A stretch of 32,000 nt of DNA from Candidatus Iainarchaeum sp. GTDB taxonomy: Archaea > Iainarchaeota > Iainarchaeia > Iainarchaeales > DTGL01. The DNA is taken from assembly GCA_038736825.1 (NCBI GenBank), contig JAVYME010000006.1, forward strand, positions 4,382-36,381, in the 5' to 3' direction. Positions 10,005 to 32,000 of the stretch are shown here, one piece after another. Both the position numbers and the translations under genes were made by a program. The notes under the pieces are model-generated. The model ran no database searches and was not told the DNA's origin. It was given only the letters and a program-made list of their open reading frames with translations. Positions within the stretch are counted from its first letter, which is position 1, and the number at the start of each line of letters is the position of its first letter.

Positions 10005-10025
10005 ATTCCAGTTCAAAAAAAACCG

Positions 10026-10060
10026 GAATTCGTGAAGTCAATGCCATTAACCTGTGCAGG
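10026..10060 (-). other. 5' strand of the pre-23S processing stem
   Basis: Complementary to 6976-7002 (see that entry). This geometry is typical of archaeal bulge-helix-bulge rRNA excision. Confidence 0.65.
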
Positions 10061-10232
10061 ATCATCTTCCGTTAACATGAAAACTACTGTTATGCTTGAG
10101 TTAACAGAATCACTATTCCATTCCAAAAAAGCTTGGAATGGTCATCATCAACAATGATGAATATAACAAAATCCCGCTTGGATTTTTTTTTTACAACTTT
10201 CTTTTCTTTTTTTGTGAATAGAAAGCTGTTAT

Positions 10233-10304
10233 TGGACCCAGCGGGAATCGAACCCGCGGCCTCAGCCTTGCAAAGGCTGCGTCATACCGCTAGACCATGG
10301 GCCC
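10233..10304 (-). tRNA. tRNA-Ala (anticodon UGC) in the 16S-23S spacer
   Basis: The minus strand reads GGGCCCATGGTCTAGCGGTATGACGCAGCCTTTGCAAGGCTGAGGCCGCGGGTTCGATTCCCGCTGGGTCCA. It has a 7-bp acceptor stem with a G3:U70 pair, anticodon stem CAGCC/GGCTG, loop TT-TGC-AA, and T arm GCGGG-TTCGATT-CCCGC. No CCA is encoded. Confidence 0.92.
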
Positions 10305-10370
10305 AGCATTGTAATATTCCGTTAGAGAATATTTTTATTTCCTTTCCACGGGTTCGCTTTTTTTTTGTTT

Positions 10371-10414
10371 GTTGTTCAAAGAGCCTTTCGGGCCAGTGCA
10401 CTGTTAGTGCTTTA
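10371..10414 (-). other. 3' strand of the pre-16S processing stem
   Basis: The RNA-sense 3' flank AAAGCACUAACAGUGCACUGGCCCGAAAGGCUCUUUGAACAAC pairs with the 5' flank at 12737-12783. GUUGUUUGAAGAGCC pairs with GGCUCUUUGAACAAC (15 bp including 2 G:U), CCAGUGCACUG with CAGUGCACUGG, and AGUGCUUU with AAAGCACU. Confidence 0.7.
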
Positions 10415-11076
10415 AATTAAAGGAGGTGATCCGTCCGCAGGTTCCCCTACGGACACCTTGTTACAACTTAGCCCGTCTCGCAGGACTCAGAATCGACTTT
10501 TTCTTTTGAAAAAGCCTCATCAAAACCCTACTCAACTGGCTTGATGGGCAGTGTGTGCAAGGCGCAGGGACGTATTCATCGCGCGATAGTGACACGCGAT
10601 TACTGGGGATTCCAAGCATTCACGAGGCAGGGTTTCAAGCCTCGATCTGGACCGAGACTGGCTTTAGGGGATTGCCTTGCCCTTTCGGGTTCGGAGCCCA
10701 TTGTTCCAGCCAATGTATGCCGCGTGTAGCCCAAGGCATTCGGGCCATACAGATCTACCGTCGACCACTCCTTCCTCCTTGTTTCCAAGGCGGTCCCATT
10801 AGAGTGCTCATCCAAAACTGGATAGTGGCAACTAATGGCGTGGGTCTCGCTCGTTGCCTGAGTTAACAGGACGCTTCATAGTACGAGCTGACGATGACCA
10901 TACAACACCTCTCAGCGTGTCAGGTAAGCCCTTCAGGTTGACCATCATTCTGCTGTCGGCCCTGGTGAGCTGTCTGGCGTTGAATCCAATTAAACCGCAG
11001 CATCCACCCCTTGTAGTGCGCCCCCGCCAATTCCATTAAGTTTCGGCCTTGCGACCATACTTCCCAGGCAGCGGAC

Positions 11077-11864
11077 TTAACGGTTTCCCTTCAGCACTCC
11101 GGTGTCAAATGAGACCGGAACACTTAGTCCGCATCGTTTACGGCTAGGACTAACCGGGTATTTAGTGGAAAGATGGAACTTTGCAAGCCTTGCCCTTTTT
11201 GCAGGATGCAAGGGCTGTGCAATGCCGAGAAATTTCTTCAAGTTTTGCTTGCCGTAAATGTAAAGCTCAAACTCTTCTCTTTTGCCTCTTTTTCTCTGCA
11301 ATTCGCTTGTTTTGATTCCTTTGCTTGAAAGGAATTTTTTCGCGAAATCCCAGAGCGGTTTTGAGGTGGTGGAGAAAGAGATTCTGGCTTGTTTTTTTCC
11401 AATGCTTGCCTCGGCGTCAAAGAGTCCCGCGAGATAAGCACCCTTATGTCCGTCAGACCATTTTGCAATGGAGGACGGGGGCGACAGGTGCTCCCTCACA
11501 GAGCCCTTTGGAACTTCAAGCACTTCTGTCAAATACTTGTATACAGCCTTGCTTTTTGTGTGACTGTAATAGGAATTCCTGTTCTTGTCATGGAATAGGT
11601 TTAATTTCACCCGAAAACCTTCAAAAACAATTTTTGCAATACCAAATGGTATTCCTTGTTTTTGTCGGTTATAAGGATTCTGCCGTAAGACGTGTTGCCG
11701 TCACCGTGCAATATGCCCAAAATCCTGCACAATTCTTTTGAAAACTGCGCTGGCAGTTTTACAATGAACTGCGAGTTTTTGTGCCTGAACCCTTTTCCAG
11801 TTTTCTGGATTTCAGGGTGTTTTTTCAGGAACGCATTCAATTTGCATTCCAAAACCTGTTCCAC
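11077..11864 (-). pseudogene. Double-motif LAGLIDADG homing endonuclease gene split by a 1-nt frameshift between the two motifs
   Basis: ORF 11607-11864 carries motif 1 (LGILHGDGN). ORF 11077-11610 carries motif 2 (YLAGLFDAEASI). The junction reads ttc ggg TGA aat TAA in frame 1 and G-TG-AAA-TTA in the -1 frame. The last 28 or so codons of the second ORF read into the 3' exon. Confidence 0.8.
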
Positions 11865-11910
11865 AAATTAATTTGTGCCTGAAGTTCTTAAAAGTTCCCC
11901 TTTTCCATAT
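11162..11910 (-). mobile_element. rRNA intron inserted within the conserved GGATTAGATA^CCCGGTTAGTCC site of 16S (junction ambiguous within the 3-nt ATA repeat)
   Basis: Exon sequence ...GACCCGGATTAGATA (ends about 11911) resumes as CCCGGTTAGTCCTAGCCGTAAACGATG at 11158 and downward. The intron ends are complementary (5' UGGAAA-AGG-GGAAC / 3' GUUCC-AUC-UUUCCA). It contains LAGLIDADG ORFs in the same orientation as the rRNA. Confidence 0.85.
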
Positions 11911-12736
11911 CTAATCCGGGTCGCTCCCCTAGCTTTCATGCCTCACTGTCAGGCCAGTCCTGGTCAGGCGCCTTCGCTACCGGTGGTCTTCTCGGGATCT
12001 TAGCATTTCACCGCTACTCCGAGAATTCCCCTGACCTCTTCCTGCCTCGAGCTTCCTAGTTTCCCTTGCGCGCCAACCCGTTAAGCGGGCTGATTTCACA
12101 GGGGACTTTTGAAGCTAGCTACGCATGTTTTAAGCCCAATATTAGTGGGCACCACTTGTGGAGTACGTGTTACCGCGGCGGCTGGCACGTATCTTGCCCC
12201 CCACTTATTCGCCAAGTTGTCTGGGCTTGGCAAAAGCCAGCAGTGCTGGCACTGGGAATCCCCCTATCGCGCTTTCGCGCATTGTAGAGGTTTCGCGACT
12301 GCTGCACCCCGTAGGGCTAGGGACCTTGTCTCAGTTCCCTACTCCGGGCTCCCTCTTCCAAGGCCCGTACAGATCTGAGGCTTGGTGGGCAGTTACCCCG
12401 CCAACAACCTATTCTGCCGCAGGCTCGTCCTTGAGCGCAACTTGCAGCATGAAGCAAGCGCTTTTTGGCAACAAGACATTCCAGTGCTTGTTGCCTATGG
12501 CACATTATCCCCAGTTTCCCGGGATTAATGCCTCTCAAGGGTAGATTGCCCACGTGTTACTGAGCCGTTCGCCAGAGGCCCTCGTGGCTGGCCTCTAAGA
12601 CTTGCATGTCTTAATCGGATTCCCATAGCAGTGCCCTCCAGCAGGATCAGCTGGAATCGGAAGAAACTCAATGGAATTTTTTTCCAGAAAACCTGAGCAC
12701 TTTTTTTAATGCTTTCAAGTTTTCTTTGTTATGTTG

Positions 12737-12783
12737 AAAGCACTTTTTCAGTGCACTGGTTTCCCGTGGCTCTTCAAACAACC
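12737..12783 (-). other. 5' strand of the pre-16S processing stem
   Basis: Complementary to 10371-10414 (see that entry). Confidence 0.7.
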
Positions 12784-13055
12784 TCACGCCAAAAAAAGCT
12801 TTGGCGCTCATTTCGTGAATCTTAGCACATTTTCTCGAAAGGCAAAAAATTGCCAGCCGAGTGTTATGTGTAAGCGTGAAATTTTTTTTCCGGCGCTTTC
12901 GCGCCATTGCTTGAACCGCCAAAACGGTTCAAAAATGGTTTCCAGTTTTTTGTGCTGGGTTTCGGTGCCGAAAACACCGAAACATATCATTATGTGGAAG
13001 TCAGTAATTATCCCAATAATTACCTCATTACCCGTATAATATACTCACACACAAA

Positions 13056-13070
13056 TATATAAAGTTTACG
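13056..13070 (-). promoter_or_regulatory. Candidate BRE/TATA promoter of the rRNA operon
   Basis: The minus strand reads CGTAAAC-TTTATATA-tttgtgtgtgagtat, about 400 nt upstream of the 16S 5' end. A palindrome, cagattGaatctg, lies immediately upstream. This is the only strong TATA element between the relE stop and 16S. Confidence 0.4.
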
Positions 13071-13259
13071 GTGACAGATTCAATCTGCAAAAAACTGCTT
13101 TTAATGGGTTTTAGTGCAATGGTTTTTAATGATGAAGCGTTAAAAAGCAGGCACTGATTATGTAGAAAAGTCTTTCTTTACTAAAAGAAGCGCTCTTTCC
13201 TTTTTCTTGCATGGTCTTTTGCGTCTGGTTCGGTAACCAAAAACTCTGGACGTGGCCAC

Positions 13260-17418: not shown

Positions 17419-20400
17419 ATGCAATTGTTGTCTTTCCACAAAAAAAACCCTTTGCTTTTTTCACTGCTTTTATTTCTTTTTTTTGAAATTCCTGTTTTTG
17501 CAGCCAATCCTCCAGGCGATTGGAGCATGTACTGGTGGGAAAACGGTCAGCTCAAAAGATGGAATTTGGACACAGCGACAACCACTATTGTTGAAGGCGC
17601 TGTCAAGTCAGGCGAAACCACTCTTTTCATGAATCCTGACACAGGCGAACTCCAAATGATGACTCCGGAAACCCACGGAGCAGTGTTCGTAAAAGAAGAA
17701 GACAAAGACGCAATGACCGCAGAATACTATAAGGCACTAGAGGCGCACTATAAAGAGGAAGTAGACCAAGGACAAAAGGATTTTGCAGTTTGGACTGGTT
17801 CAGACGGAAAAACCTATGCTTACTCAAAGGGAGACTCATCGCCCAAAGAAGTGGAGTTAAAAGAAAGCGGGTATTTTGAGAAAGACGGGAAATACTATAA
17901 AGTGAATCCTGACACTAAAAAGGTTTATTCTGTTAGTGAAGAGGAATTCTTTGTTCATGGTACTAAAGAAGAATTTTGGGCTGTGAGTGAAGGCGATGAA
18001 GTTTTTTTGCTTAAGCGCGGTGATATGGAAGGAGAAGTTGAAAAGTATTCTGATGGGTGGCAAAGAACGGATGGAACTTATTTTTGGACTGGCAGTGAGA
18101 ATGATCCAATTTTTTATCGAGTAAGCCTAGATGGTAAAACAGTTGAAAAAATTGGAGTTGAAGAATACGTTGGTTTGTCGCCTGATTTAAGTCTAGAACA
18201 AAAGGCTTTTTTCAAAGACGCGCTTTTGTCTATGGCTTACGAATTAGTCGGTACCCCCAAGCAAGCTAAATTGGAGTATTTTTGCAAACTGTGTTTTGGA
18301 GAAGATACTGCTGAAGAGAGTTCTTATCTTTTGGATAGCATGACTAGTAATAACGTAGAGGGTTTGAATCTTACAGTTTTAGATAATTTAAGTTATGTTG
18401 ATAGTGGAAAGGGAATATTGTGTGGCCTTAACGGGATTTGCTATCCATACAATCCTGTTGGAGAGGCAAATTCACAACCAGTTGGTAGGATAGTGAAAGT
18501 TGGCAGTCAATATGTGTATGTTAGTGACAATGATAGCCAGCAGTATAAAGAGCAGCATGGAACGCAGTTAAGTGCCCTAGCAACACAAGCTGAATTAAGT
18601 GCAAGTGACAGAGTGGTTGTTGAAAAGCAAGCTTCAGGTGGCGCATCACCAAGTGATAGTAAAATAGGAGACCAAGATTTAACAGGCGTTGCATCTGGTT
18701 GCAGTGGTTTTGGTTGTAGTGGGGGGGATATAGGGGAAGAGCAGCAACCTGGTCTTGAAAGTTGCGCTACAGCGCTTTCTTGTTCTCATTATTATGCTCA
18801 AAATGTTTGCGGTTATAATTTGGATAATGGTTGTGGTGGCACTATTTCTTGTGTTTCCTGTCCGACTGGTTTTGTTTGTAGGAATGGTTCTTGTGCTTGC
18901 ACTCCTAAAACCGCTTGTTCTTTGCAAAGCAAGTGCGGTGAAGAGGATAATGGTTGTGGTGGTAAAATTTTTTGTGGTTCTTGTCCTGCTGGCTTGCAGT
19001 GTGACTTGCAATACAGGGAGTGCGTTCCAGAAAAGGAAAAAACTTATTTGGATTTGAGTGAAATAAGTGTTTTTGCTTATTCCAATTATGCAGTGCTTTC
19101 TTGGAATACTTCTGTTCCGTCTGATTCCATTGTTTTTCTTGGCAAAACGCCAGCACTTGGATTGCAGCAAAATGTTTCTTTTGCCACTAAAACCCATTCT
19201 CTTTTGTTGGAGGGTTTGCAGCCAGACTTAGTTTATTATTATAAAGTGCGGGTTGTTGCTGGCAGTGAATCTAGGGAAAGCTCTGGTTCCTTTAAAACGC
19301 TCAAGGTTGGCGCTGACACTGGACCATTGAAGGTGTTAATGGTTTCAGTTGACCCGCCTGGAAGGGCTGAATACGAGGGTTATGCTTTTTCTTTTACTGC
19401 TTTAACCAATTCTTTGAATCCTTCAGAGCTTGAATTTGAATGGGATTTTGGTGATGGTTTTGTTTCAAAGAAAGCAGGCTATGTTGTTTACCATTCATAT
19501 TATGGTTTGACTGAAAAGGAAAAAGATTTCAATGTAAGGGTGATTGCAAGGGATAAAAACGGTTTTAGTGCTGAAAGCAGTTTGACTGTCAAGGTTTTAA
19601 AAGCGGTTTTCAAGCCAGTTGTTTTGTCGCCAAGCCAGTTTGAATTGTTGTCAAAAAAAGGCAAGCTGGCTTTTTCAATTGTTTTTTTGGATGAACAGGA
19701 AAAAATGATTCCTTGCAAAAAAATAGTCTTAAAGGCTATTTTTGCAGGGCAAAGCATTGAAATGAAGTGCGATGACGGCAATCTTTTCAGTGGCTCTGTT
19801 TTGGGTTGGCATGGCTTGGATGAACTGGAATTGCTGGCAATTTATGCAAGCTATACTTTGGGTGAAAGGACTTATTTTGTTAAAACAAGGGCGCCAGTTT
19901 ATTTGGCTCCAGCCAGGATTTCTGTAAGTGACATTTTCAGGCAAAAAAAATATTTTTTGAATGATTCCCTTGGAAAAGCCAAAGCCAGGTTTTTGATTGA
20001 AAAAATAATGCTGGTTTTTCCCCAAAACCTAAAGGCACAGCTTGTTTCAAGCAATTGGTCAAAGGATGTAAACATTGAAAGACAGGAATACGATTACATT
20101 CTCTCTTTTGACCATGTTGTAAGTGAAACCGATTTATTGGAGGGCTTAAAGCTGAAATTGGAGGGCAGGGATTCGCATGGAAACATTGTTGCAGAACTAA
20201 TAGAATTGCCTCTTGAAAAAAGCAATCCAGAGCTAAGAATTGAATTGATTGAACCAATAGAGGGCAGTAGTGGTTTTGCTTTTGGGCAAAGGCTTAGGGT
20301 TAGAGCCAAAGCAATTCATAAAAGCCCTTCCCTTAAAAACAAAGCCTTGTTTTTGGAATGCGGGCGCCTTGATCTTTTTACTGGAATGGAGTTTGATTCA

Positions 20401-21312
20401 ACCAAAAAAGAATATTTTTCTGAAATATTGCTGCCATTGCCTGGTTTTGGTAATGCAACAATTTTGTGCAGTGTTCACGCTTACGGTTTTGAGGGCGAAA
20501 GGCAAGTGGAAAGCGTTGCCCACTTCACAGTAAATCTTTCAGGCAACCTTGGAATAGAATTTGTTTTGCCATCACAAGGCAATTTCAAGGTTTTTGGTGG
20601 GCGCGTGGGACAATTAAGGGTTAAATTGTTGCAAGAGAACGGCAAACCCTTTGAAGGACTGGATGTCAATGCAGTTTTAGTGGTTGACGGCAAAACAATG
20701 GAGAAAACCTTAAAGTTTGATTCTTGGAGTGGAGTGCACTATGCAGACCTTGATTCACCCCTTGAAGCAGGCCAGCATTCTCTGGCTGTTTCGTTATCCC
20801 AGCCATTCCAGGGAAACAATGAAATTTTGACAGTGATTGAAGAGGATGTTTTCGCTGGCTTTTTGCTTTCAAGCTTGGTTTTGCTAATTGTTGTTGGCTT
20901 GCTTGTTTGGTTTTTTTGGTTTTTTTCCAGAAATGCTTTGGCTGAAAGAAAGGCGTTGTTGGCTGAAAAGCAAAAGCTTTTGGGTTTAAGGAAAAAATAC
21001 AAGTTTGAGTTTTTCAAAAGGCATATAAGTGAAAAGGAATTCAGAGAGCGCTCGAAGGCAATCGACAAGTCCTTGGAATTGGTTTCTGGAATGCTAAGGC
21101 ATGGCGCATGGGTTCGCGTTGGATTAATGAAAACAATTTATCGAACAAATGATATCAAAAAACTGCCTTTGAAAGCGCAAGCGGAAGCGCTTTGCATAAG
21201 GCTTGCTGGCAAAAGCGGAGAGTTTTCCAGAATAGAGGTTGCCAAAACGCTTTTAAGCGAAGGCTATCAAGAAAAAACCATAAACGAGGTATTGGACAGG
21301 CTTTTTAAGTGA
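17419..21312 (+). CDS. Giant type I membrane surface protein: signal peptide, W/Y/G-rich repeat region, two Cys modules, FN3-like and PKD domains, Ig-like repeats, TM helix, SHOCT-like cytoplasmic tail
   Basis: 1297-aa ORF. Signal peptide is LLFSLLLFLFFEIPVFAA. Cys modules are CGYNLDNGCGGTISCVSCPTGFVCRNGSC and CGEEDNGCGGKIFCGSCPAGLQC. PKD signature is LEFEWDFGDGF...VRVIARDKNGFSAESS. TM segment is FLLSSLVLLIVVGLLVWFFWFF. The tail contains FEFFKRHISEKEFRERSKAI. Confidence 0.88.
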   Translation: MQLLSFHKKNPLLFSLLLFLFFEIPVFAANPPGDWSMYWWENGQLKRWNLDTATTTIVEGAVKSGETTLFMNPDTGELQMMTPETHGAVFVKEEDKDAMTAEYYKALEAHYKEEVDQGQKDFAVWTGSDGKTYAYSKGDSSPKEVELKESGYFEKDGKYYKVNPDTKKVYSVSEEEFFVHGTKEEFWAVSEGDEVFLLKRGDMEGEVEKYSDGWQRTDGTYFWTGSENDPIFYRVSLDGKTVEKIGVEEYVGLSPDLSLEQKAFFKDALLSMAYELVGTPKQAKLEYFCKLCFGEDTAEESSYLLDSMTSNNVEGLNLTVLDNLSYVDSGKGILCGLNGICYPYNPVGEANSQPVGRIVKVGSQYVYVSDNDSQQYKEQHGTQLSALATQAELSASDRVVVEKQASGGASPSDSKIGDQDLTGVASGCSGFGCSGGDIGEEQQPGLESCATALSCSHYYAQNVCGYNLDNGCGGTISCVSCPTGFVCRNGSCACTPKTACSLQSKCGEEDNGCGGKIFCGSCPAGLQCDLQYRECVPEKEKTYLDLSEISVFAYSNYAVLSWNTSVPSDSIVFLGKTPALGLQQNVSFATKTHSLLLEGLQPDLVYYYKVRVVAGSESRESSGSFKTLKVGADTGPLKVLMVSVDPPGRAEYEGYAFSFTALTNSLNPSELEFEWDFGDGFVSKKAGYVVYHSYYGLTEKEKDFNVRVIARDKNGFSAESSLTVKVLKAVFKPVVLSPSQFELLSKKGKLAFSIVFLDEQEKMIPCKKIVLKAIFAGQSIEMKCDDGNLFSGSVLGWHGLDELELLAIYASYTLGERTYFVKTRAPVYLAPARISVSDIFRQKKYFLNDSLGKAKARFLIEKIMLVFPQNLKAQLVSSNWSKDVNIERQEYDYILSFDHVVSETDLLEGLKLKLEGRDSHGNIVAELIELPLEKSNPELRIELIEPIEGSSGFAFGQRLRVRAKAIHKSPSLKNKALFLECGRLDLFTGMEFDSTKKEYFSEILLPLPGFGNATILCSVHAYGFEGERQVESVAHFTVNLSGNLGIEFVLPSQGNFKVFGGRVGQLRVKLLQENGKPFEGLDVNAVLVVDGKTMEKTLKFDSWSGVHYADLDSPLEAGQHSLAVSLSQPFQGNNEILTVIEEDVFAGFLLSSLVLLIVVGLLVWFFWFFSRNALAERKALLAEKQKLLGLRKKYKFEFFKRHISEKEFRERSKAIDKSLELVSGMLRHGAWVRVGLMKTIYRTNDIKKLPLKAQAEALCIRLAGKSGEFSRIEVAKTLLSEGYQEKTINEVLDRLFK

Positions 21313-21361: not shown

Positions 21362-22312
21362 ATGCAAAAATGCGCTTTTGTTGTTACAAGGCAACAAATA
21401 GATGGTTATTTGAAATTAATGCGTCCAATGGAGTGGAGCAAGAGCGCTGGCAACATGATTATTGCGGGCGTTATTGCGGCTTTCGCTTACCCTGGAATTG
21501 CTTCTTTTTTGTCGCTTGAATTTGCAATGGGCTTGATTTCAGTTATTCTCTTGTGGTCTGGCTTGTATGCTTTGAATGATGTAATGGACTGGCAAGAGGA
21601 TGCCCAGCACGCAGTTAAAAAGAAAAGACCAATTCCGGCTGGAATTGTTTCACCAAACGCTGCACTCACTTTTTCCTATTTATTGTTGTTTTTTTCTCTT
21701 GGCTTGGCGCTCTTATTGCATAACTCTTTGTTCTTTTTATGTCTTTTGGCAATGTTCATAAACCAGATAATGTACACTTCTGAGCCTTTTTCTTTCAAAA
21801 AGAGACCGTTTTTGGACATTATAAGCGGTTCTGTCATAAACCCTATTTTCAGGTTTTATTCTGGTTGGATTTTGCTGGTTGGCTCTTTCAATGCACCACT
21901 CTTGGCTTTAGTGTTTGTTGTTGGCTTGCAAGTTGGCGGTTATGGCTTGTATCGCTTGATGAGCATAGAGCATGAAAAAAAACTCGGGTATGCTGGAAGC
22001 ATGACGCGCTTTAATGAAAGAGTGCTTAAATGGTTTTTTTATTTTGCAATCCTTGCCGGCGGCTTAGCATATTTTGCCATGTGCTTGAGCCCAATTCTTT
22101 TTGAGGGAAAGATTCTGCCAAGCCTTCCAGGTTCTGGCAGCCTGCCACCCAAATACAGTGTGCTAGGCATAGCCTCAATTTTGTTGTTTCCATTCTATTT
22201 GCCTTTTTTGAGAAAACCGGAAAAGGCGGCAATGGAAAAAGCCTACAAACTCCTTTATTTCCATTATCTCTTCTTTATAGGCGGTTTTTTGCTCTTGTAC
22301 TTTTTGTTTTAA
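21362..22312 (+). CDS. UbiA-superfamily membrane prenyltransferase
   Basis: 316 aa and polytopic. The first Asp-rich motif is YALNDVMDWQEDAQHAVKKKRPIPAG (NDxxDxxxD followed by RPxPxG). The N-terminal YLKLMRP is typical of the family. The second motif position reads SIEHEKKLGY. Confidence 0.8.
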   Translation: MQKCAFVVTRQQIDGYLKLMRPMEWSKSAGNMIIAGVIAAFAYPGIASFLSLEFAMGLISVILLWSGLYALNDVMDWQEDAQHAVKKKRPIPAGIVSPNAALTFSYLLLFFSLGLALLLHNSLFFLCLLAMFINQIMYTSEPFSFKKRPFLDIISGSVINPIFRFYSGWILLVGSFNAPLLALVFVVGLQVGGYGLYRLMSIEHEKKLGYAGSMTRFNERVLKWFFYFAILAGGLAYFAMCLSPILFEGKILPSLPGSGSLPPKYSVLGIASILLFPFYLPFLRKPEKAAMEKAYKLLYFHYLFFIGGFLLLYFLF

Positions 22313-23904: not shown

Positions 23905-24786
23905 TTATTGCTTTTGGAATGCGTTTTGCACTAGGTTTGGCTCGAATGCCTCTGGCACTTTGCCGGTTTTCGCATAAATGTATAATGCTGCGTTGAAAAT
24001 GCCTTCAATGCTTGCTTTCAGTATGCTGAGAGCCAAAACATAAATTATGAAGACAACCAAGGCAATCATAATGAAAAGCGAGTTGCCTAAAACAATGGCT
24101 GGCACAATCAGCACAATGCCCCCAAAAAACATTAAAATGAAAAAAATAAAGCCAATTGAAGCACCGCCTACCACTTGTTCACCCCAGGTTTTCTTTAAGA
24201 GTTCGCCTGACCTCTTGATTGCCTCAAAAGGCCCAATTCCTTCAAAAACCATTATGGGTACCACGAAAAAGGTTAAAAGGCTCCAAGCCATTCCCATTGC
24301 TGAAACCAGTATTTGGGCCAAAAAATTGCCTCCTCTTCCGTTCCTGCCTGAGGCTGCGTTTTGGAGGGTTTTAAGCAATAAACCGATTGTGGCGGCAATC
24401 AAAGCCCAAACAAAGATTTTGCCAATGTTTTTGAAGGCATTGTTCAAGCCGTCACTGACAGTTGGATCGCCGCCGTTCAATCTTATGTGCGCGCAAGTGA
24501 TTAAACCGACATTGAAAAAAATAACTATAAAATAACTCAAAAAATAAAACGCAAAAAGTGATAAAATAAGGATTGGAGTGAGAGGGGAGTTTTCTTCAGT
24601 AACAGCAATGTTGCCGTATTCGTCAGATGGCGGGGATAAAAGAACTATTGGAACAATAAAGGAAACCAGCAATAAAATTGTTGTTATTCCAGTAAGGACT
24701 GGGAAAAGCATTATCTCCTTGTCTTTTTTCAAAACCTCAAGGCTTGCCTTAATCAAATCAATGCTTCTGGAAATGCTTCCAAACAT
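23905..24786 (-). CDS. Polytopic membrane protein, DUF6159-like
   Basis: The preferred start is the ATG at 24786 (MFGSISRSIDLIKASLEVLKKDKEIMLFPVL...), with Shine-Dalgarno GGTGAT 6 nt upstream. The track start at 24792 is a GTG directly abutting that SD. There are about 6 TM helices. The family call is from the remembered N-terminal pattern. Confidence 0.6.
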   Translation of the reverse strand: MFGSISRSIDLIKASLEVLKKDKEIMLFPVLTGITTILLLVSFIVPIVLLSPPSDEYGNIAVTEENSPLTPILILSLFAFYFLSYFIVIFFNVGLITCAHIRLNGGDPTVSDGLNNAFKNIGKIFVWALIAATIGLLLKTLQNAASGRNGRGGNFLAQILVSAMGMAWSLLTFFVVPIMVFEGIGPFEAIKRSGELLKKTWGEQVVGGASIGFIFFILMFFGGIVLIVPAIVLGNSLFIMIALVVFIIYVLALSILKASIEGIFNAALYIYAKTGKVPEAFEPNLVQNAFQKQ

Positions 24787-25146
24787 TTTCACATCACCGC
24801 CAAAAATATAATTAATAAGTAAAGGTTAGGGGTTTTTTATTGTTTCGCTTTTAGGAAAGCACTTCGTTTTTTTTTTAATCCTTTTCAGCATAGAATGTAA
24901 TTATATGCTGGCTTGAGCGCACGCAAGTTGAACCTTCAGTCAAGCGTTCCTTGAAAGAAGTAAAGCAAAATTTAAGGCAAATGAGTGGCATAATGGTTTC
25001 AGAAAAGTTTTACCTTTTTGCAAGAAACCCAGGGGGCAAGGGCATTGCTTGCAATGGGCTTGAATGCCCATTTTCTTCAAAAAAATTAGCCTTTTTTTGT
25101 GCACAGTCCTTCCTAAAGCAAAAAATTATATATAAGGTAGAATAAT

Positions 25147-26775
25147 ATGCCTATTGTGAAGAAATTAAAGTTTTTGTTTTTGACTGCAATTTTTTTGGCT
25201 TTTTTGCCAACAGTTTTTGGGGACTGCCTGGTTTTAGACCAGCAAGTGAAAAGCGGAGATAAAATCAAAACTGATTGCTTAAAGCTCACTGGTGCAAACA
25301 CAGAGCTTTTCAAAAATGACAGCGAGCTTTATTGCATTGGCTCGTCAGTTTATTTTGCCACAACCGTCCTCAACCCAGCAACCGGCAATATAGTTCAAGC
25401 ATACAATTGCCAGTGCGAAGACAAGCAAGTCCACCACCCTTGGTTTGTGAGGTCTGAAATATCAATGCCGGTTTTTTCAAAGAAAAAAGTTTGCCCTGGA
25501 GAAAAAATCACTGTTTCCGTAGCGCCTTTTACAATCCAGTGCATTGATGGCGCGCTATCCTCTTTTTCGCCGGCTTTCCTTGTAGGCTACGAATTTGAGG
25601 GAAAGCCCCAAATTATTGGACATAACTGCAATCATCTTTCCTCTAATGGTTGCAATTTAGTACCCCATTCACAGGGCGGGCAATCCATCACAATAACAAT
25701 TCCGCAAAACCTTTCAAGCGAGAAAAAAATCAGGCTCTTCACTGCAATGCAGGCAAAATACGATTACCAGATAACGGCAAACTCTATGTCTTTGCCGATA
25801 GTCCACTGGCAAACAATAGAACTGGAATCAGACAACTATTTTGATTTTGCAACAGACAAGTTAACATATTGCAGGGATGACGCTGTACTGGTTACAGGCG
25901 AATCTGTTTGCTGTGGCTCTGTTGGTTCCACTGTTGAGATTGTATTGAAAGACAGTTCTGGGAAAAAAGTGAAAACTGTTTCAGTCCAAATAAAGGCAGA
26001 CAACAGTTTTTCAGCCACAATTCCCTTGAACAATAACCCGGCAGGCCAATACATTGTGAGCGCAAAAAGCACTGAGGGGGGCTGTTCTGCTGAAAGGCCC
26101 ATAAATGTCATTGAATATTCCTCTTCCATTCTTTCCAATAACTTTTCCTTTGCCCCCAATTCGCCTGTAACAATTTCAGGTTCAACAGAGTGTTGTGCCA
26201 AACCATCGCAAAAAGCTAACATCAAACTTTTAGACACAACCAAAAATGTTATATCCAGTGAAAGCGCTGTCATAAAAAACAATGGTTCTTTTGAAGCCAC
26301 AATGCTTGTGCCGGGAAAAGCCGGTGAATACTTTGTTGTCGTCGATTTCCCTAATCCAGTGCCAGAATGCACTGGAAAAAGCTTAAAAGTGAGCGTCTAT
26401 GACCCCTACATTATAACCTCGGTTGAGGCGGAAAACAGAGAGGAAGGCCAAAAGGCAAGAGTGAGGGTTTCCTGCAACAAGGAAATGCCTGTTTTATTGA
26501 AATTGTTCTCTGAACCGGTTGGCAAAAGCGAAGAATTGCTGGCAGAACAAAACTATCAATGCAATACCGGCTTTGTAGAGATTGGGCCAGAGCTTTCATC
26601 CGGAATATACCGCGTTGTTGCAATTTCAAAGATTGCCACTTGTGAAAAGTGCGAGGGCATAAAGCGCTTTGTTGTTTCAAAAGGAGTTGTTTTAGATGTG
26701 CCTGATTTCAGTCTTTTCCTTTTAGGGTTAATTCCGCTGAGCATTCTTTTTTTGACAAAAAAAAGGGAAAAATAA
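25147..26775 (+). CDS. Secreted, C-terminally anchored protein with two tandem Ig-like repeats each opening with a CC pair
   Basis: 542 aa. Signal peptide is LKFLFLTAIFLAFLPTVFG. The repeats are VTGESVCCGSVGSTVEIVLKDSSGKKV...NNPAGQYIVSAKSTEGGCS and ISGSTECCAKPSQKANIKLLDTTKNV...GKAGEYFVVVDFPNPVPECT. The C-terminal TM plus basic tail is LFLLGLIPLSILFLTKKREK. Confidence 0.8.
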   Translation: MPIVKKLKFLFLTAIFLAFLPTVFGDCLVLDQQVKSGDKIKTDCLKLTGANTELFKNDSELYCIGSSVYFATTVLNPATGNIVQAYNCQCEDKQVHHPWFVRSEISMPVFSKKKVCPGEKITVSVAPFTIQCIDGALSSFSPAFLVGYEFEGKPQIIGHNCNHLSSNGCNLVPHSQGGQSITITIPQNLSSEKKIRLFTAMQAKYDYQITANSMSLPIVHWQTIELESDNYFDFATDKLTYCRDDAVLVTGESVCCGSVGSTVEIVLKDSSGKKVKTVSVQIKADNSFSATIPLNNNPAGQYIVSAKSTEGGCSAERPINVIEYSSSILSNNFSFAPNSPVTISGSTECCAKPSQKANIKLLDTTKNVISSESAVIKNNGSFEATMLVPGKAGEYFVVVDFPNPVPECTGKSLKVSVYDPYIITSVEAENREEGQKARVRVSCNKEMPVLLKLFSEPVGKSEELLAEQNYQCNTGFVEIGPELSSGIYRVVAISKIATCEKCEGIKRFVVSKGVVLDVPDFSLFLLGLIPLSILFLTKKREK

Positions 26776-28700
26776 TGCTGCCAAAAAGAGTTTTTTTAGC
26801 CTTAATAGTGCTATTTGCTTTTTTTCCCCTGCCTGCTTGTGCTTGGAAAGAAGAGTTTTTTGCAGAAGGCCAGCTTTCAGCATCGCTTGACCGAAATTTT
26901 GCTCTTGCCGGCGAAACATTGACAGCAAACCTTTTGATTGAAAACCTTTCAGGAGTGCCACTCTCTGAAGCATACCTGGTTGCCCAGCTTGTTCTTGAAA
27001 AAACCGCTTTAGGGCAGCCAAGGGAAAACATTGTATTGGAAACCATGAGCAAAAAATATTTTTTGAATGCAGGCGAGTCAAAGCCGGTTGAAATGAAGAT
27101 TGCAATCCCAAAAAAAGCCAGTTCTGGCAGTTACAGGATTGACTTTTACCTTAAGACTCCGCGCTCCTTTATTGTCGGCATTCCCTTTATTTTCTTGAAC
27201 CCTCACTCTGAAAGGCTTGAGGTCAAGAACAATGCGGTTTCCAGTGATGTCTTGATTGACAGAGAAAAAACCATTTTGTGCGGTGCACTGCCTGAAAAAA
27301 ACTACGAGTATGGCTGTTATCCCGGGCCTGTTGGCGTTGTCGGCAAGGCTGGGGAAAAAAACACGCTCAATCTTGCAATAAAAAACAATGGCTCCTTTTC
27401 TCAGCAGGTTTCACTCAAAATAAGCTTTTACAGGTATGATGACACTGTTGAAGAAATGCTTTTGGCTGAAAAAACAGTCCAGGCAAAAACAGTCATTGGA
27501 GCAGGAGAAACAATTGAACACCCTGTTGAATTTTTTTATCCAGAAAAAGCGGGCGCTTATGCTTTGAGGCTCGAGGTTTTTGACAGCGAGGGCGAACTCC
27601 TTTCACTTTACAGGAGCAGAATAAATGTTTACGGTGTAAGCGCCAGAGTTATCGCGGTTTTCCCGCAAAAAAAGTTTTTCAAGGCAGGGGAAAGAGTGCT
27701 TGTAGAGGTAAAAATAATTTCCCCCTCGGATTCCAAGACTTCGGACACAAATTGCACGGTAAGGCTTTCAGCAAAAAAAGGACAGAGAGAAATCCATTCC
27801 GAGTCAAAAAAAGTCTCCCTTTTGCAGGATTTGCCGCTTCAAAGCGTTTTTTTTGAGTTTACTGCCCCAGAAGACTTGTTTGAATTTGAAATTTCAGCTG
27901 AAATCCTTGATTCCTCTGGAAACGAAGTTGACAAAACAACGCAAAAAATTGATTACAAAGATTTTTCACAAAAAATCGGTTCTTTTGACTTGAACATTTT
28001 AGACTCTGCCGGAGAAACCCCTTCAATGATATTGGTTGGCGACACCATAAAACTCTCAGCAAATGCAGTTGACGAAGCAGGCTTTGATGCAAATGCAAAA
28101 ATTGAATGCTTTGTGTTTTTTGGCGCTCAAAAGGCCGGCCCAATAGTGTTTGAAAAGAAAACGGAGTTAACGGAAAGGCTTTCATCAGGAGACTATTTAT
28201 TGCAATGCCAGGCAGGCAAAAAAAAGATGGAAATCCCTTTTTTTGTCAGTTCTGTGCAAAAAATAGTGGCAAAATTTGCAGACAACTGTGAATTCAAAGA
28301 GGAAAAGCAAAAATTCACAGCAGGACAAGAAATCTGCGTAAAGGCAATCGTTTTGAATGAAAGCGGGGAAACACTTTCAACTCCAACAACAATGAGCATA
28401 AAGGGAAAAGATTCCACGGTTGGCCCAATTGAATTCAGTGCTGAAACAAAGGTTTCAAACCTGCCTGAAGGAAAATATATTTTCAAATTCGAATCAGGCG
28501 GGCTTGTTGAAACCTATGCAGTCAACTTTGAAGCAGTGACTGAACCAGAACGCTTGGTATTGCCTGAGAGGTCTATTCAAACCAAAGCAGCGCACACACC
28601 GCTTTCATTTTACCTTATGCTTGTTGTAACAAGCATTGCAGTCTTTCTTTTCTTAGTGGGCCTTTTAAGGATTTACAGGAAAAGGCGTGCTGGAAAATAG
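26775..28700 (+). CDS. Secreted, C-terminally anchored protein built of repeated CARDB-like / Ig-like beta-sandwich units
   Basis: 641 aa. The start overlaps the upstream stop (TAATG). Signal peptide is VFLALIVLFAFFPLPACA. Units include LTANLLIENLSGVPL and LNLAIKNNGSFSQQVSL. The C-terminal anchor is LMLVVTSIAVFLFLVGLLRIYRKRRAGK. Confidence 0.8.
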   Translation: MLPKRVFLALIVLFAFFPLPACAWKEEFFAEGQLSASLDRNFALAGETLTANLLIENLSGVPLSEAYLVAQLVLEKTALGQPRENIVLETMSKKYFLNAGESKPVEMKIAIPKKASSGSYRIDFYLKTPRSFIVGIPFIFLNPHSERLEVKNNAVSSDVLIDREKTILCGALPEKNYEYGCYPGPVGVVGKAGEKNTLNLAIKNNGSFSQQVSLKISFYRYDDTVEEMLLAEKTVQAKTVIGAGETIEHPVEFFYPEKAGAYALRLEVFDSEGELLSLYRSRINVYGVSARVIAVFPQKKFFKAGERVLVEVKIISPSDSKTSDTNCTVRLSAKKGQREIHSESKKVSLLQDLPLQSVFFEFTAPEDLFEFEISAEILDSSGNEVDKTTQKIDYKDFSQKIGSFDLNILDSAGETPSMILVGDTIKLSANAVDEAGFDANAKIECFVFFGAQKAGPIVFEKKTELTERLSSGDYLLQCQAGKKKMEIPFFVSSVQKIVAKFADNCEFKEEKQKFTAGQEICVKAIVLNESGETLSTPTTMSIKGKDSTVGPIEFSAETKVSNLPEGKYIFKFESGGLVETYAVNFEAVTEPERLVLPERSIQTKAAHTPLSFYLMLVVTSIAVFLFLVGLLRIYRKRRAGK

Positions 28701-28868
28701 CAATTGAAGCCTTTTTTAAAAAAACAGACCGCGGGTATTTTAAGGATTGAATGCGGGAAATCGCAATTCCGCCCACGCAAGAGAATGAAAACTGTTTTTT
28801 CCTAAAAAGCGTTTGAAAAAAGATTATGAATAAATGCTTTTGCACTCCAAAGGTTAAGGGCAAAAGCA

Positions 28869-31280
28869 ATGAGTTGGATGCAAAAAAGCATTTTTTTTTT
28901 ATTCCTTGTTTTTTTAGTTCCAGTTTTTGCTGAAACCCTGTGTTATTTTAAGGGTCCTGATGTTTCTGGTGATTTTGTTCGTTTGACTAATTTTTTGGTT
29001 GAGGGTTCTTCTGGTTTGAAGGAGGGTGATTTGATTACTGTGAAGTTTGATTTGCAGAATTATGGGCAAAACCAGCTGGTTTTTGGTTCTCGTGGGGTTT
29101 TTGCTTTTGCAATTAGTCCAGATAATTCTGATGCTTCTTTTGGTTTTTCTTTTGCGAATACTGTTTGGAAGCCTGGTGAAACGCGTTCTTTTTCTGCTTC
29201 CAAGGTTTTGGGCAAGGCTGGAGTGTGGAAGGTTTGGCCTTCTTATGAGGTTTTGGTTGGTAAAACCACAGTGTTGGGTCCAGAGCAATGGCATTATTGT
29301 AGTTTGAAGGTGGCGAGTGCTGCAAAGGCTGATTTGGACCAGGATGGGGTTCCAGATGAAAGCGATAATTGTCCTAAAACTTTTAATCCCAATCAAGAAA
29401 ACGGTGATGGTGATTCTTTTGGGGATGCTTGTGATGATTCTGATAATGATGGGGTAATGGATAACAAGGATAATTGCATTTTCATTTCAAACCAAGACCA
29501 AAAGGATTCAGACCAAGATGGCATTGGTGATGCTTGTGATTCTTGTGATGACAGGGATTTTGATGGAGATGGCATAAAAAACTGTTTAGACGAATGCCCA
29601 ACCGAAAAAGAAAACCTTAACAATTTCCAGGATTCAGATGGCTGTCCAGACAAACAACCGGAAACTCAAACAATCAACACTCCAACCCCAACACCATTCA
29701 TCACACAAAAGCCAACAACACCCACAATAAAACCTTCACCAACCCCAACAATTGCCAAAACACCCACTCCAAAACCTTTAATTGAACCGCAAAAAAGGCA
29801 AATTTCTCTTTCCACAACAGAAGGAAAAACCATAACAATAAGCGAGCCCAAGGCACCAAGCATTGCAGAAGGCCCAATAATGCAGGGAGCCTTTAATGAT
29901 GATGACGGTGATGGCGTAATAAACCTTTTGGATGATTGCCCAGGCACTCCGGCAGGAAGACGGGTTTTTGAAAACGGCTGCCAGTGCAAGGACACGGATG
30001 GCGGAATTAAACAATTTGAAAAAGGAACAGTTTCCATAAAAAACAGGAGAGATGAAGTAGACGGTTGCTTTCTCGGCGTGAATAAATTAATGGAAAACTA
30101 TTGCGATCCAGAAAGCGAAGCAGCAGGAACAATTCCTTTCAAAATAATTGACTGCAATTATGGATGTGAAGACGGCGCTTGCAAAAGGCCTTCAAGCCTT
30201 GCTTTTCCCTTAACCTGTTCCACTGGCACTGCAACCTGCTTTGACGGAATCCAAAACCAGGATGAAACAGGAATTGATTGCGGCGGCAAATGCCCTCCAT
30301 GCAATTCGCGGTGCTTGACGCCAACAAAATATGCTCCAAATGACACTCCTTGCACTAAACACTTTGTTGGAGGAGGCCGTGCAATAGTTGATGGAAGGAC
30401 TTATCCGCACATGCATTTCTATGATTATGATTTCATTTCAGATGAAAACCAGAGTGACCAGCACAGAATAGAGCTTGGATGGACTGAGGGCGGCGGTGAA
30501 TGCAATTGCCAGTTTTACGAGGTTTGCGATGAAAACCTTGACAGCATAATAAGGGAGGCAGTGGAATGCTGTAGTGCCACAAGCTGGGATCAAGTGGACA
30601 CACTAATAGAGCCAAACCTTTGCAGGGAAGCCTTGCAACAAGGCGGTTCAAATTGCAAAAAATGCATTGGATTGTATTTAATCAAAGGGCTTGGACCGTA
30701 TGCGAGATGGATGCGAGGCTATTTCCGCAATCGTTCAATGGAATACTTTGTGTGCGGCGCTTGGGCTTCAGCTTCACCTTCTGAGCGGCTGATCAACTTT
30801 CACAAAACCGGTATTTGCAGGGATTATTCTGCAGCAGTCACAACCCTTTTAAGAAAGGCTGGTTACACTCAAAGGGAGATCGCAAACTATTGCGATGGAG
30901 CGCACTGCTATAATTTGGTGAAATTTCCTGGAGACTCAAAATGGCATGTTGTTGACACAACAAACAACAATATTGGAGTGGTTTTAGGCGGTCTTCCAGG
31001 CGGTTACCCTTACTGTTTTGCATTGAATGAGGCAAATTATTGCTTTAACAACATTAAAACCTATAATGTGGATGATTATTGGAGTGCAAGGGATCGTGGC
31101 GCGCCTTTTGCTTTTGCAACTTGCATTATTCCCGGCTTTGCTGGAAGATATTCTGGCTATGATTTCAATTTCAATCGCTCTTATTTCCCTGAATGCGGTT
31201 TAGGGGTTGCTTGTGCGCGTGACAATTTCAGGTTGCCGGATTTTGCGCCAAGCATTTCCCAGATTGTGGGGTGCAGTTAA
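28869..31280 (+). CDS. Secreted protein with thrombospondin type-3 (Ca-binding) repeats, PT linker, Cys-rich region and a C-terminal transglutaminase-like core
   Basis: 803 aa. Signal peptide is IFFLFLVFLVPVFA. TSP3-type repeats are DQDGVPDESDNCPKTFNPNQENGDGDSFGDACD and DSDQDGIGDACDSCDDRDFDGDGIKNCLDECP (about 29331-29660). The transglutaminase-fold motifs are GICRDYS (Cys codon 30816-30818), GAHCYNLV (His 30903-30905) and HVVDTT (Asp 30954-30956). Confidence 0.85.
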   Translation: MSWMQKSIFFLFLVFLVPVFAETLCYFKGPDVSGDFVRLTNFLVEGSSGLKEGDLITVKFDLQNYGQNQLVFGSRGVFAFAISPDNSDASFGFSFANTVWKPGETRSFSASKVLGKAGVWKVWPSYEVLVGKTTVLGPEQWHYCSLKVASAAKADLDQDGVPDESDNCPKTFNPNQENGDGDSFGDACDDSDNDGVMDNKDNCIFISNQDQKDSDQDGIGDACDSCDDRDFDGDGIKNCLDECPTEKENLNNFQDSDGCPDKQPETQTINTPTPTPFITQKPTTPTIKPSPTPTIAKTPTPKPLIEPQKRQISLSTTEGKTITISEPKAPSIAEGPIMQGAFNDDDGDGVINLLDDCPGTPAGRRVFENGCQCKDTDGGIKQFEKGTVSIKNRRDEVDGCFLGVNKLMENYCDPESEAAGTIPFKIIDCNYGCEDGACKRPSSLAFPLTCSTGTATCFDGIQNQDETGIDCGGKCPPCNSRCLTPTKYAPNDTPCTKHFVGGGRAIVDGRTYPHMHFYDYDFISDENQSDQHRIELGWTEGGGECNCQFYEVCDENLDSIIREAVECCSATSWDQVDTLIEPNLCREALQQGGSNCKKCIGLYLIKGLGPYARWMRGYFRNRSMEYFVCGAWASASPSERLINFHKTGICRDYSAAVTTLLRKAGYTQREIANYCDGAHCYNLVKFPGDSKWHVVDTTNNNIGVVLGGLPGGYPYCFALNEANYCFNNIKTYNVDDYWSARDRGAPFAFATCIIPGFAGRYSGYDFNFNRSYFPECGLGVACARDNFRLPDFAPSISQIVGCS

Positions 31281-32000
31281 ATGAAAAAAACACTTTTGGT
31301 GTTAGCAGCACTATTGTTTTTTCCTTGTTGTTTTGCAATTGTTTTGCCTTCTCAACCCTTTGAAGGCATTTCCATTAACCGGATTGCGCCAGAACAAGCA
31401 ATTGTGGGGCAAAAGGCTTGGATTGGTTTTTCAATTGAAAACCTTTCAAGCCAGGAAAAAACAATTGAATTGACAGAAAAACTGGGAAACGCGAATTTTG
31501 ACGAAAGCCAAGCCAAATTCATTGAAACAGAGTATGGGGAAAAATTTTGGCATTATTATTGGAAGATAAGGCTTTCCCCGAAAGAAACCACTTCTGTTTT
31601 TTACTGGATTGAACCAAAAAACCCGGGCACTTATGTTTTAACCCCTGCAGAAGTCAAAGTCGGCGGAGAACTGTTTTTTTTGAAAAGCCATTCAATTGCA
31701 GTGAAATGCCTTTCTGACGGAAAATGCTCTCCAGAGCAGGGCGAAAACCAGTTCAATTGCTTTGAAGACTGCAATTCTGGCATCCAAAACCAGTATTGTG
31801 ATTTTGAAACCGATGGCATCTGCGATCCTGACTGCATTGAGGGCGCAGACCCGGATTGCATGCAAACCGAAACAAAAACAGTCAAAACATCAGAACAGCA
31901 AACTCAAAGCCCAGTTCCTTCACCAATGCAATCCCAACAGGAAAACAGCCTTGTTTACTGGATTTCATTGATTGCATTGCTTGCACTGGCAGGCATCATT
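31281..32000 (+). CDS. Secreted beta-sandwich protein with a Cys-rich module and the beginning of a C-terminal TM anchor; 3' end runs off the right edge of the window
   Basis: Absent from the ORF track (no stop in the window). The ATG immediately follows the upstream TAA. Hand translation gives 240 open codons: MKKTLLVLAALLFFPCCFA...FSIENLSSQEKTIEL...CNSGIQNQYCDFETDGICDPDC...LVYWISLIALLALAGII. Confidence 0.75.
   Translation, partial: MKKTLLVLAALLFFPCCFAIVLPSQPFEGISINRIAPEQAIVGQKAWIGFSIENLSSQEKTIELTEKLGNANFDESQAKFIETEYGEKFWHYYWKIRLSPKETTSVFYWIEPKNPGTYVLTPAEVKVGGELFFLKSHSIAVKCLSDGKCSPEQGENQFNCFEDCNSGIQNQYCDFETDGICDPDCIEGADPDCMQTETKTVKTSEQQTQSPVPSPMQSQQENSLVYWISLIALLALAGII

Follow-up and report, generated by a model that had tools for sequence, protein, structure and literature searches.

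A conserved gene pair for a putative tethered transglutaminase-like enzyme at the end of a Candidatus Iainarchaeum contig

The stretch of Candidatus Iainarchaeum sp. DNA analysed here (contig JAVYME010000006.1; 32,000 nucleotides, called the window below) ends in four closely packed, co-directional open reading frames (ORFs), P1 to P4. This arrangement raises the question of whether the four genes work together. A sequence-only reading of the window had taken them for one module, a candidate host-attachment or envelope cross-linking apparatus of a symbiotic archaeon. The comparison with other genomes pointed instead to two independent units, P1–P2 and P3–P4. We lean towards the view that P3–P4 is a conserved two-gene module for a two-part cell-surface enzyme, in which P4 would tether the unanchored P3.

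Four genes, two units

Loci carrying P3 came from three sources: exact look-up, a scan covering one genome for each GTDB species, and a search of metagenomes with a profile of the catalytic half of P3. The four window proteins were compared by tblastn with all 114 fetched loci. A P4 homologue was present in 31 of the 33 loci with a homologue of the P3 catalytic domain and was located directly downstream in 30 of them. The P3 and P4 genes lie end to end in the window, and elsewhere the called genes also touch or share a few bases. A search for conserved synteny had been suggested together with the one-module proposal, and its outcome divided the four genes: a homologue of P1 or P2 was found in none of the 33 P3 loci. 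A lack of joint occurrence in other genomes had been named as grounds for refuting the proposal, and between P1/P2 and P3/P4 this lack was observed. When the flanking ORFs were clustered all against all, the only conserved families were P3 (27 loci) and P4 (25 loci), the remainder being shadow ORFs, and no third conserved gene (thioredoxin, MoxR, sortase) was found around the pair. The P3–P4 neighbourhoods were otherwise unrelated between loci. P1 and P2 recurred together only in L089, a 3-kb contig of a close relative, as an overlapping pair with identities of 45% and 57%, respectively. It held the only P1 homologue among the 114 loci, directly upstream of the P2 homologue, and the gene following the pair there differs from P3.

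The junctions proved to be exactly where they had first been read. P1 and P2 are joined by a TAATG (26773-26777), the TAA of P3 is followed by the ATG of P4 with a gap of 0 nt (31278-31283), and between the two pairs lies a spacer in which two T6 runs and a TATA-like, AT-rich stretch were read (Table 1). Oligo-T tracts are terminators of archaeal transcription. The spacer likely contains the end of a P1–P2 transcript and the promoter region of P3–P4. Because the 33 P3 loci are devoid of P1 and P2, because L089 continues into a different gene and because this T6-bearing spacer lies between the pairs, we read the region as two independent units, and the apparent four-gene 'operon' as two unrelated ones.

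A single adhesion or envelope cross-linking apparatus made of all four products is, on this evidence, very improbable. The common orientation, the close spacing, the predicted export of every product and the presence of CARDB/DUF11-type sandwiches in P2, in the N-terminus of P3 and in P4 would fit it, but significant similarity between the four proteins was not found. The opening thought to be shared by P2 and P4 (LLIENLSGVP and FSIENLSSQE) was not upheld, as all pairwise BLASTP comparisons among the four gave E ≥ 0.037; a profile of the P4 orthologues aligned with P2 over exactly the 'IENLS' stretch, with a probability of 1.7%. The GIQNQ cysteine motif, thought to link P3 and P4, dissolved in the same way. 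Its letters in P3 belong to a knot that is strongly conserved, C-x-DG-[IV]-x-N-x-x-E-x-G-[IV]-DCGG-x-C, whereas in P4 they fall on non-conserved columns of the family, and the BLASTP match was not significant.

The P3–P4 pair was carried by archaea of the Iainarchaeum/Diapherotrites, Aenigmatarchaeota and Micrarchaeota, by a bin labelled 'Methanocellales' and by metagenome contigs. The bacterial carriers were four metagenome-assembled genomes (MAGs) of Anaerolineae/Chloroflexi, which formed a separate clade in a neighbour-joining tree. This distribution is consistent with one inter-domain transfer. The occurrence of the same pair in these bacteria argues against a function specific to archaeal episymbiosis and weakens the host-attachment proposal.

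The association extended to more distant proteins. Three remote relatives were looked up (P0151, P0167 and P0170; approximately 45% identity over a core of approximately 90 aa), and in all three a P4-like gene (profile E about 1e-40) abuts or overlaps the stop codon. Natural fusions of a transglutaminase core followed by a P4-like domain were observed in 10 of the 146 relatives from the representative search (E from 4e-41 to 3e-7). The P4-like part of these fusions begins after the leader positions, and in P0213 the C-terminal transmembrane helix is kept. Versions of P3 with other N-terminal modules (NPCBM-like, no thrombospondin type-3 repeats; bacterial and other) still have P4, and therefore the association concerns the catalytic half. 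In three remote archaeal loci (L112 1-8297, L113 1-5947 and L114 1-5472) the transglutaminase-core and P4-like genes were located directly after a conserved run of housekeeping genes, comprising an EMC3/TMCO1-like insertase, L34e and prefoldin in each; SecY was seen in L112 only.

Homologues elsewhere were found for all four proteins, and therefore the ORFs are not chance ones. The public annotation of two of them can be corrected. The NCBI record names P3 'thrombospondin type 3 repeat-containing protein' and begins it at Val58 (746 aa, P0001), so that the leader and part of the first beta-sandwich are lost (window 28869-29042). Orthologue alignment supports the ATG at 28869 as the probable true start. 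P4 is labelled 'partial' and hypothetical in the record; the end of the window is that of the source contig.

Table 1. Coordinates of the features in the window.
Feature	Protein position (aa)	Window position	Strand	Remarks
P1		25147-26775	+	ORF, 542 aa
P1 C-terminal hydrophobic segment	513-539			
P2		26775-28700	+	ORF, 641 aa; start overlaps P1 stop
P2 C-terminal hydrophobic segment	606-635			
Spacer P2–P3		28701-28868	+	168 nt; T6 runs 28712-28717 and 28795-28800; AT-rich TATA-like stretch 28824-28835
P3		28869-31280	+	ORF, 803 aa
P3 leader	1-21			
P3 CARDB-like beta-sandwich	22-150			
P3 thrombospondin type-3 repeats	about 150-260			four, predicted Ca-binding
P3 Pro/Thr linker	262-312			
P3 further DDDGDG/Cys-rich region	330-440			
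P3 knot	450-482	30216-30314		C-x-DGIQNQDETGIDCGG-x-C
P3 helical and transglutaminase-like putative catalytic domain	483-803			ends in invariant ...IVGC-S
P3 Cys650		30816-30818	+	in GICRDYS
P3 His679		30903-30905	+	in DGAHCYN
P3 Asp696		30954-30956	+	in HVVDTT
P4		31281-32000	+	ORF, 240 aa, cut by contig end
P4 leader	1-19			
P4 DUF11/BatD-like beta-sandwich	about 30-140			
P4 Cys/Asp-rich knob	143-193			six to eight conserved Cys; GEN..NCP.DC...DG.CDPDC signature
P4 Q/S/T/P linker				between knob and transmembrane helix
P4 start of C-terminal transmembrane helix	221-240			hydrophobic segment, cut
PKD-domain protein		4595-6274	-	E=1e-20
Large-subunit rRNA		7012-10001	-	
tRNA-Ala		10232-10305	-	
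Small-subunit rRNA		10421-12657	-	
ORF inside 16S		11077-11610	-	LAGLIDADG_3 domain, E=1e-12
1297-aa ORF		17419-21312	+	weak PKD
UbiA-family prenyltransferase		21362-22312	+	
DUF6159 membrane protein		23905-24792	-	E=1e-49

The P3 and P4 proteins

The predicted sorting of the four products agreed with what had been read from the letters. In a Kyte–Doolittle scan each protein showed an N-terminal hydrophobic segment; P1 and P2 ended in a hydrophobic segment followed by a visible K/R tail, P4 was cut at the start of such a segment, and P3 had none. The leaders are taken as signal peptides from hydropathy, A-x-A-like cleavage contexts and conservation among orthologues, which supports exported or surface proteins in all four cases. 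No NCBIfam or Pfam match to a sorting motif (LPXTG, PGF-CTERM and similar) was found in the window proteins before the transmembrane segment and basic tail of P1, P2 and P4. A faint PGF-CTERM match (E=0.016) was seen in a single P4 orthologue and a weak Gram_pos_anchor match in one distant P2 relative; comparison of the P2 relatives and of the P4 orthologues revealed no conserved motif preceding the transmembrane segment. None of the four proteins matched a PADLOC profile for anti-phage defence.

P3 contains 43 Cys. Its thrombospondin type-3 (TSP3) repeats gave the strongest Pfam match (TSP_3, PF02412, E=8e-21, four stretches), with DxDxDGxxDxxD motifs at aa 155, 190, 213, 228 and 344. The match that suggests an enzyme was much fainter. 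Transglut_core reached 23.9 bits (cutoff 23; E=5.4e-5; aa 639-696), and was recovered in 21 of 27 members of the family, with a best E of 2.4e-8. In the alignment of these 27 full-length relatives (39–68% identity), His679 and Asp696 were invariant and Cys650 was present in 26. The three residues lie in the motifs G-[IV]-C-R-D-Y, C-D-G-x-H-C-Y and V-D-T-T, with T-L-L-R-K-x-G also conserved, and the context of this putative catalytic triad was retained in the remote relatives. Approximately 25 further Cys were invariant, which fits an extracellular disulphide-rich protein. All 27 proteins end at or within two residues of ...VGC-x, without a hydrophobic tail. The N-terminal modules vary, with TSP3 repeats in 24 of the 27 and NPCBM-like modules in three. 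An intermolecular disulphide through the invariant Cys802 was considered and found no support, the conserved Cys being even in number both in the catalytic half of P3 (18 when the nucleophile is left out) and in P4.

The AlphaFold2 model of P3 gave the first beta-sandwich a predicted local distance difference test score (pLDDT) above 90 (aa 20-150), and Foldseek with the full-length model returned matches of this sandwich only (ApaG, TRAP-beta, CARDB, arrestin-like). The profile search of the PDB found TSP3 proteins only (COMP, 3fby, E=2.5e-26, and thrombospondin-2) and for the catalytic domain noise only (nanobodies), and the NCBIfam matches of P3 were sub-threshold and TSP3-driven (MtsC, Omp28-related). 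When aa 474-803 were searched by phmmer against 1.84 billion representatives, 198 proteins were found at E≤1e-3, of which 155 also passed E≤1e-10 and 24 passed E≤1e-30. The wider relatives are large and exported; they carry modules of the PKD, Ig-like, FG-GAP or disintegrin-like type and keep the triad in its context. Judged by sequence, P3 belongs to a small, divergent branch of the transglutaminase-like superfamily.

The knot located before the catalytic domain, C-x-DG-x-x-N-x-x-E-x-G-x-DCGG-x-C, is also a free-standing module in many unrelated exported proteins. The scan of one genome per species yielded 197 confirmed stretches, in Bacteroidota (notably Saprospiraceae), Woesearchaeota, Nanoarchaeota, candidate phyla radiation (CPR) bacteria and Myxococcota (loci L017-L084). 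Within P3, no Pfam model matched the knot at E≤0.1.

A search of the protein index with P4 returned three proteins, P4 itself and two homologues; the orthologues were drawn from the DNA of the fetched loci, giving a family of 27 distinct sequences including that of the window. The members have in common the leader, the beta-sandwich, a knob of the form C...C..GEN..NCP.DC..G..D..CD...DG.CDPDC...D.D and a stalk that varies; wherever P4 is complete and a protein of its own, it ends in a transmembrane helix and a basic tail. The Pfam model BatD (PF13584) gave 15 bits with the window P4, below its cutoff of 24.1, and matched 16 of 20 orthologues at E≤0.05 (best E=5.7e-9); an Ig-like Top6b_C domain was found in 12 of the 20. 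Compared as profiles by hhalign, the P4 sandwich and the one at the N-terminus of P3 are similar (probability 88.9%, E=2.4e-6). The PDB profile search gave nothing below E=0.1 for P4, and NCBIfam gave no match.

A possible tethered enzyme and its alternatives

We propose that P3 would be exported as a soluble, disulphide-rich, Ca2+-binding protein, and may depend on calcium. Its C-terminal domain would be a divergent transglutaminase-fold (papain-like) Cys-His-Asp enzyme, forming a thioester with a protein substrate. The thioester would be resolved by water, in the case of a protease or isopeptidase, or by an amine, in the case of cross-linking. P4 would be a type-I membrane protein whose DUF11/BatD-like sandwich and Cys/Asp knob physically associate with the catalytic half of P3, while its C-terminal helix would hold P3 at the cell surface. 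Held in this way, P3 may remodel envelope or extracellular proteins. P4 is thus most likely a subunit that tethers or assists an exported cysteine enzyme, be it a protease or a transamidase. Its role as the tether is suggested by the complementary anchoring of the two families, an anchor being absent from every P3 and present in every P4 that is complete and separate.

Several observations weigh against this proposal. The P3–P4 linkage is not perfect: in L010, a Micrarchaeota MAG, P4 lies 4.4 kb from P3, the pair being split (8906-13229) by a minus-strand gene for a beta-helix protein and a gene for an AAA_14 ATPase, and in L009 and L106 the P3 homologue was found without P4. Most fusions are devoid of a C-terminal transmembrane helix and have further domains after the P4-like part, and therefore the P4-like module appears to be more than an anchor, possibly a regulatory or substrate-binding one. 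In one orthologue, P0005 (L002 10001-12343, a JGI contig of 737 kb), the catalytic Cys is replaced by Ser (TGMSIDYS) while His, Asp and the downstream P4 are kept; this variant could use Ser as its nucleophile or be inactive. The AlphaFold2 model of the catalytic domain was of moderate quality (mean pLDDT 67.7, core 75–90) and Foldseek found nothing significant for the catalytic half (best E=0.12). Sequence alone, finally, does not separate a protease from a transamidase. As to the loci concerned, L009 is a second P3 copy of the MAG of L010, with no P4 in the 1 kb available downstream, and the ORF between P3 and P4 in L010 was considered as a P3 paralogue and rejected, being the AAA_14 ATPase.

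Besides the four-gene apparatus, two other explanations of the pair have to be weighed. P4 might be a substrate reserved for P3, which would cleave it off or cross-link it through the Q/K/P-rich stalk. It might also act as a cognate inhibitor or as a factor in maturation, silencing P3 until the enzyme has reached its place. Staphostatins and chagasin are beta-barrel or Ig-like inhibitors encoded beside cysteine proteases, and the tight gene coupling and the fusions would equally fit an inhibitor or a pro-domain-like module. The stalk of the window P4 is indeed Gln-rich (TSEQQTQSPVPSPMQSQQENS), and the many fusions without a transmembrane helix indicate that anchoring is not the sole role of the module. 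However, the composition of the stalk is not conserved and almost no stalk is left in L002 and L092. Conservation in P4 falls on the sandwich and the Cys/Asp knob, not on a cleavage or cross-link motif, and the anchoring of all complete separate P4 proteins but of no aligned P3 is predicted by a tether and not by an inhibitor. We consider a substrate or inhibitor role somewhat unlikely.

It could also be imagined that P3 is a non-catalytic adhesin with a degenerate transglutaminase-like binding module, the pair forming a Ca-stabilised surface fibril. The marginal Pfam score of the window P3, the lack of a significant structural match and the Cys to Ser change in one orthologue would agree with such a fibril, as would the TSP3 repeats and sandwiches, which are typical of adhesins. 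This explanation is nevertheless distinctly improbable in view of the near-complete conservation of Cys650, His679 and Asp696 within strongly conserved motifs. The context of the triad persists in relatives that share little else, which is the pattern expected of purifying selection on an active site.

No account of the P3–P4 pair was found in full-text searches of the literature, in agreement with the initial impression that the operon was not a described one. The nearest frame is the transglutaminase-like superfamily (Makarova, Aravind & Koonin 1999, as summarised in PMC10318531), whose members are proteins of archaea and bacteria. P3 passes the Pfam cutoff of Transglut_core (PF01841, clan Peptidase_CA), shows the triad in the canonical order and context (G-x-C-R-D-Y ... 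H-x-Y-N ... V-D-T) and is likewise predicted to be extracellular and multi-domain. It differs by its strong divergence, no solved structure being detectable by sequence, by two extensions, a unique helical and Cys-rich one at the N-terminus and one at the C-terminus that closes with an invariant G-C, and by the obligatory P4 partner gene, for which no description was found in the literature searched. With the thrombospondin/COMP type-3 repeats P3 has the repeat module alone in common, as four DxDxDGxxDxxDxC repeats; the TSP3 repeat is a promiscuous Ca-binding spacer present in thousands of prokaryotic exported proteins.

LapG, of the BTLCP family (bacterial transglutaminase-like cysteine proteinases), is a protease of the periplasm that depends on Ca2+ and sets free the adhesin LapA. 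P3 would likewise be an exported, Ca-associated cysteine enzyme of transglutaminase fold at the cell surface. The Foldseek list for the catalytic half was headed mostly by papain/transglutaminase-fold proteins (LapG, arylamine N-acetyltransferase, Rad4, PNGase, CPR-C4) and also held some deubiquitinases and menin. The LapG structures (4u65_E, 4fgq_A) stood near its top with non-significant values (E 0.13–0.5, template-modelling score about 0.3). The predicted Ca sites of P3, in contrast to those of LapG, are TSP3 repeats outside the core. An assignment of P3 to BTLCP/LapG was rejected, as no BTLCP match was obtained in Pfam or NCBIfam and no LapD, LapA or type-I secretion genes were found nearby.

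Methanogens possess transglutaminase-type adhesin-like proteins (Group III ALPs) with their own N-terminal transmembrane anchor and pseudomurein-binding repeats (PMC11532034). Like P3, they are surface proteins of archaea in which Ig-like domains at the N-terminus are combined with a transglutaminase-like domain at the C-terminus. P3 differs in that its leader looks cleavable, it has no anchor, it carries TSP3 repeats and its anchored partner is a separate protein. The hosts of P3–P4 are DPANN archaea and Anaerolineae. The pseudomurein endoisopeptidases PeiW and PeiP are related to the Group III ALPs. P4, for its part, has the layout of BatD/DUF11-CARDB proteins (leader, DUF11-like sandwich, C-terminal transmembrane helix), a similarity at the domain level only, and carries the Cys/Asp knob in addition. 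BatA/B/C/E, MoxR, DUF58 and vWA genes adjoined P3–P4 in none of the loci examined. In the MoxR-DUF58-transglutaminase clusters (TgpA type; bifidobacterial PFNA cluster, PMC8430577), a transglutaminase-like protein is reported to be likewise encoded with a beta-sandwich (FN3) protein. The AAA+ ATPase, DUF58 protein and polytopic membrane transglutaminase of those clusters are absent at P3–P4.

The neighbouring genes and the meaning of the pair

P1 begins with a hydrophobic leader, contains 20 Cys and weak Ig-like repeats, and ends in a transmembrane segment with a KKREK tail; its Pfam matches were Ig-like and sub-threshold only (MG2, 3e-5, below cutoff). P2 consists of CARDB/NPCBM_assoc-like beta-sandwich repeats and a C-terminal transmembrane segment with an RKRRAGK tail. 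NPCBM_assoc reached 27.5 bits over the whole protein (cutoff 24.4), with no single stretch passing, and CARDB 19.7 bits, below its cutoff of 22.7. Of the Ig/CARDB-like stalks, TSP3 repeats and transglutaminase core that had been read in the cluster, the repeats and the core were upheld, both in P3. Four P2 homologues were found in an index of 5.8 billion proteins (P0125, 57%; P0126, 38%; P0127, 30%; P0128, 27%), and the more distant ones sit in other DPANN surface-protein gene clusters, without P3 or P4. P1 and P2 are best explained as a pair of translationally coupled surface proteins, Ig/CARDB-like, anchored in the membrane and specific to the lineage.

In L085 (3269-9579), distant relatives of P2 belong to overlapping gene pairs that are repeated. 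In each pair a P2-like protein with an anchor (581 or 569 aa) comes first, and the exported protein after it (470 or 455 aa) has no anchor and ends in a conserved ...MYGWTVNC...W.FYV tail. DPANN may have here a further surface pair of the 'anchored plus soluble' kind.

Elsewhere in the window, an archaeal rRNA operon was located on the minus strand. The 16S match covered 2237 nt for a model of 1478 positions, with an insertion of approximately 760 nt, and the ORF inside it encodes a LAGLIDADG_3 homing-endonuclease domain. The insertion looks like an rRNA intron with its homing endonuclease; the 23S gene is without such an insertion. The envelope-related neighbours are a 1297-aa ORF, a UbiA-family prenyltransferase, a PKD-domain protein and a DUF6159 membrane protein, and in the clustering of flanking ORFs none of them recurred beside P3–P4 elsewhere.

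A bolder and clearly unlikely extension of the tethered enzyme is that P3–P4 and the fusions make up an unrecognised envelope-building system of several DPANN phyla and Anaerolineae. The pair would then be a membrane-tethered, Ca-dependent transpeptidase/transglutaminase that covalently attaches or cross-links surface proteins, in a role like that of sortase or archaeosortase. It would join them to the envelope of the cell itself or to that of a partner cell. A housekeeping role in surface biogenesis would agree with the position of the pair right after a SecY/EMC3-like insertase/prefoldin cluster in some lineages.

The life of DPANN archaea depends on contact with other cells, and the enzymes that build or remodel their surfaces are almost unknown. 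P3–P4 is a sharply defined pair present in at least three named DPANN groups and in one bacterial class, sometimes as one fused protein. It offers a concrete, expressible target for learning how these cells process or cross-link their envelope proteins.

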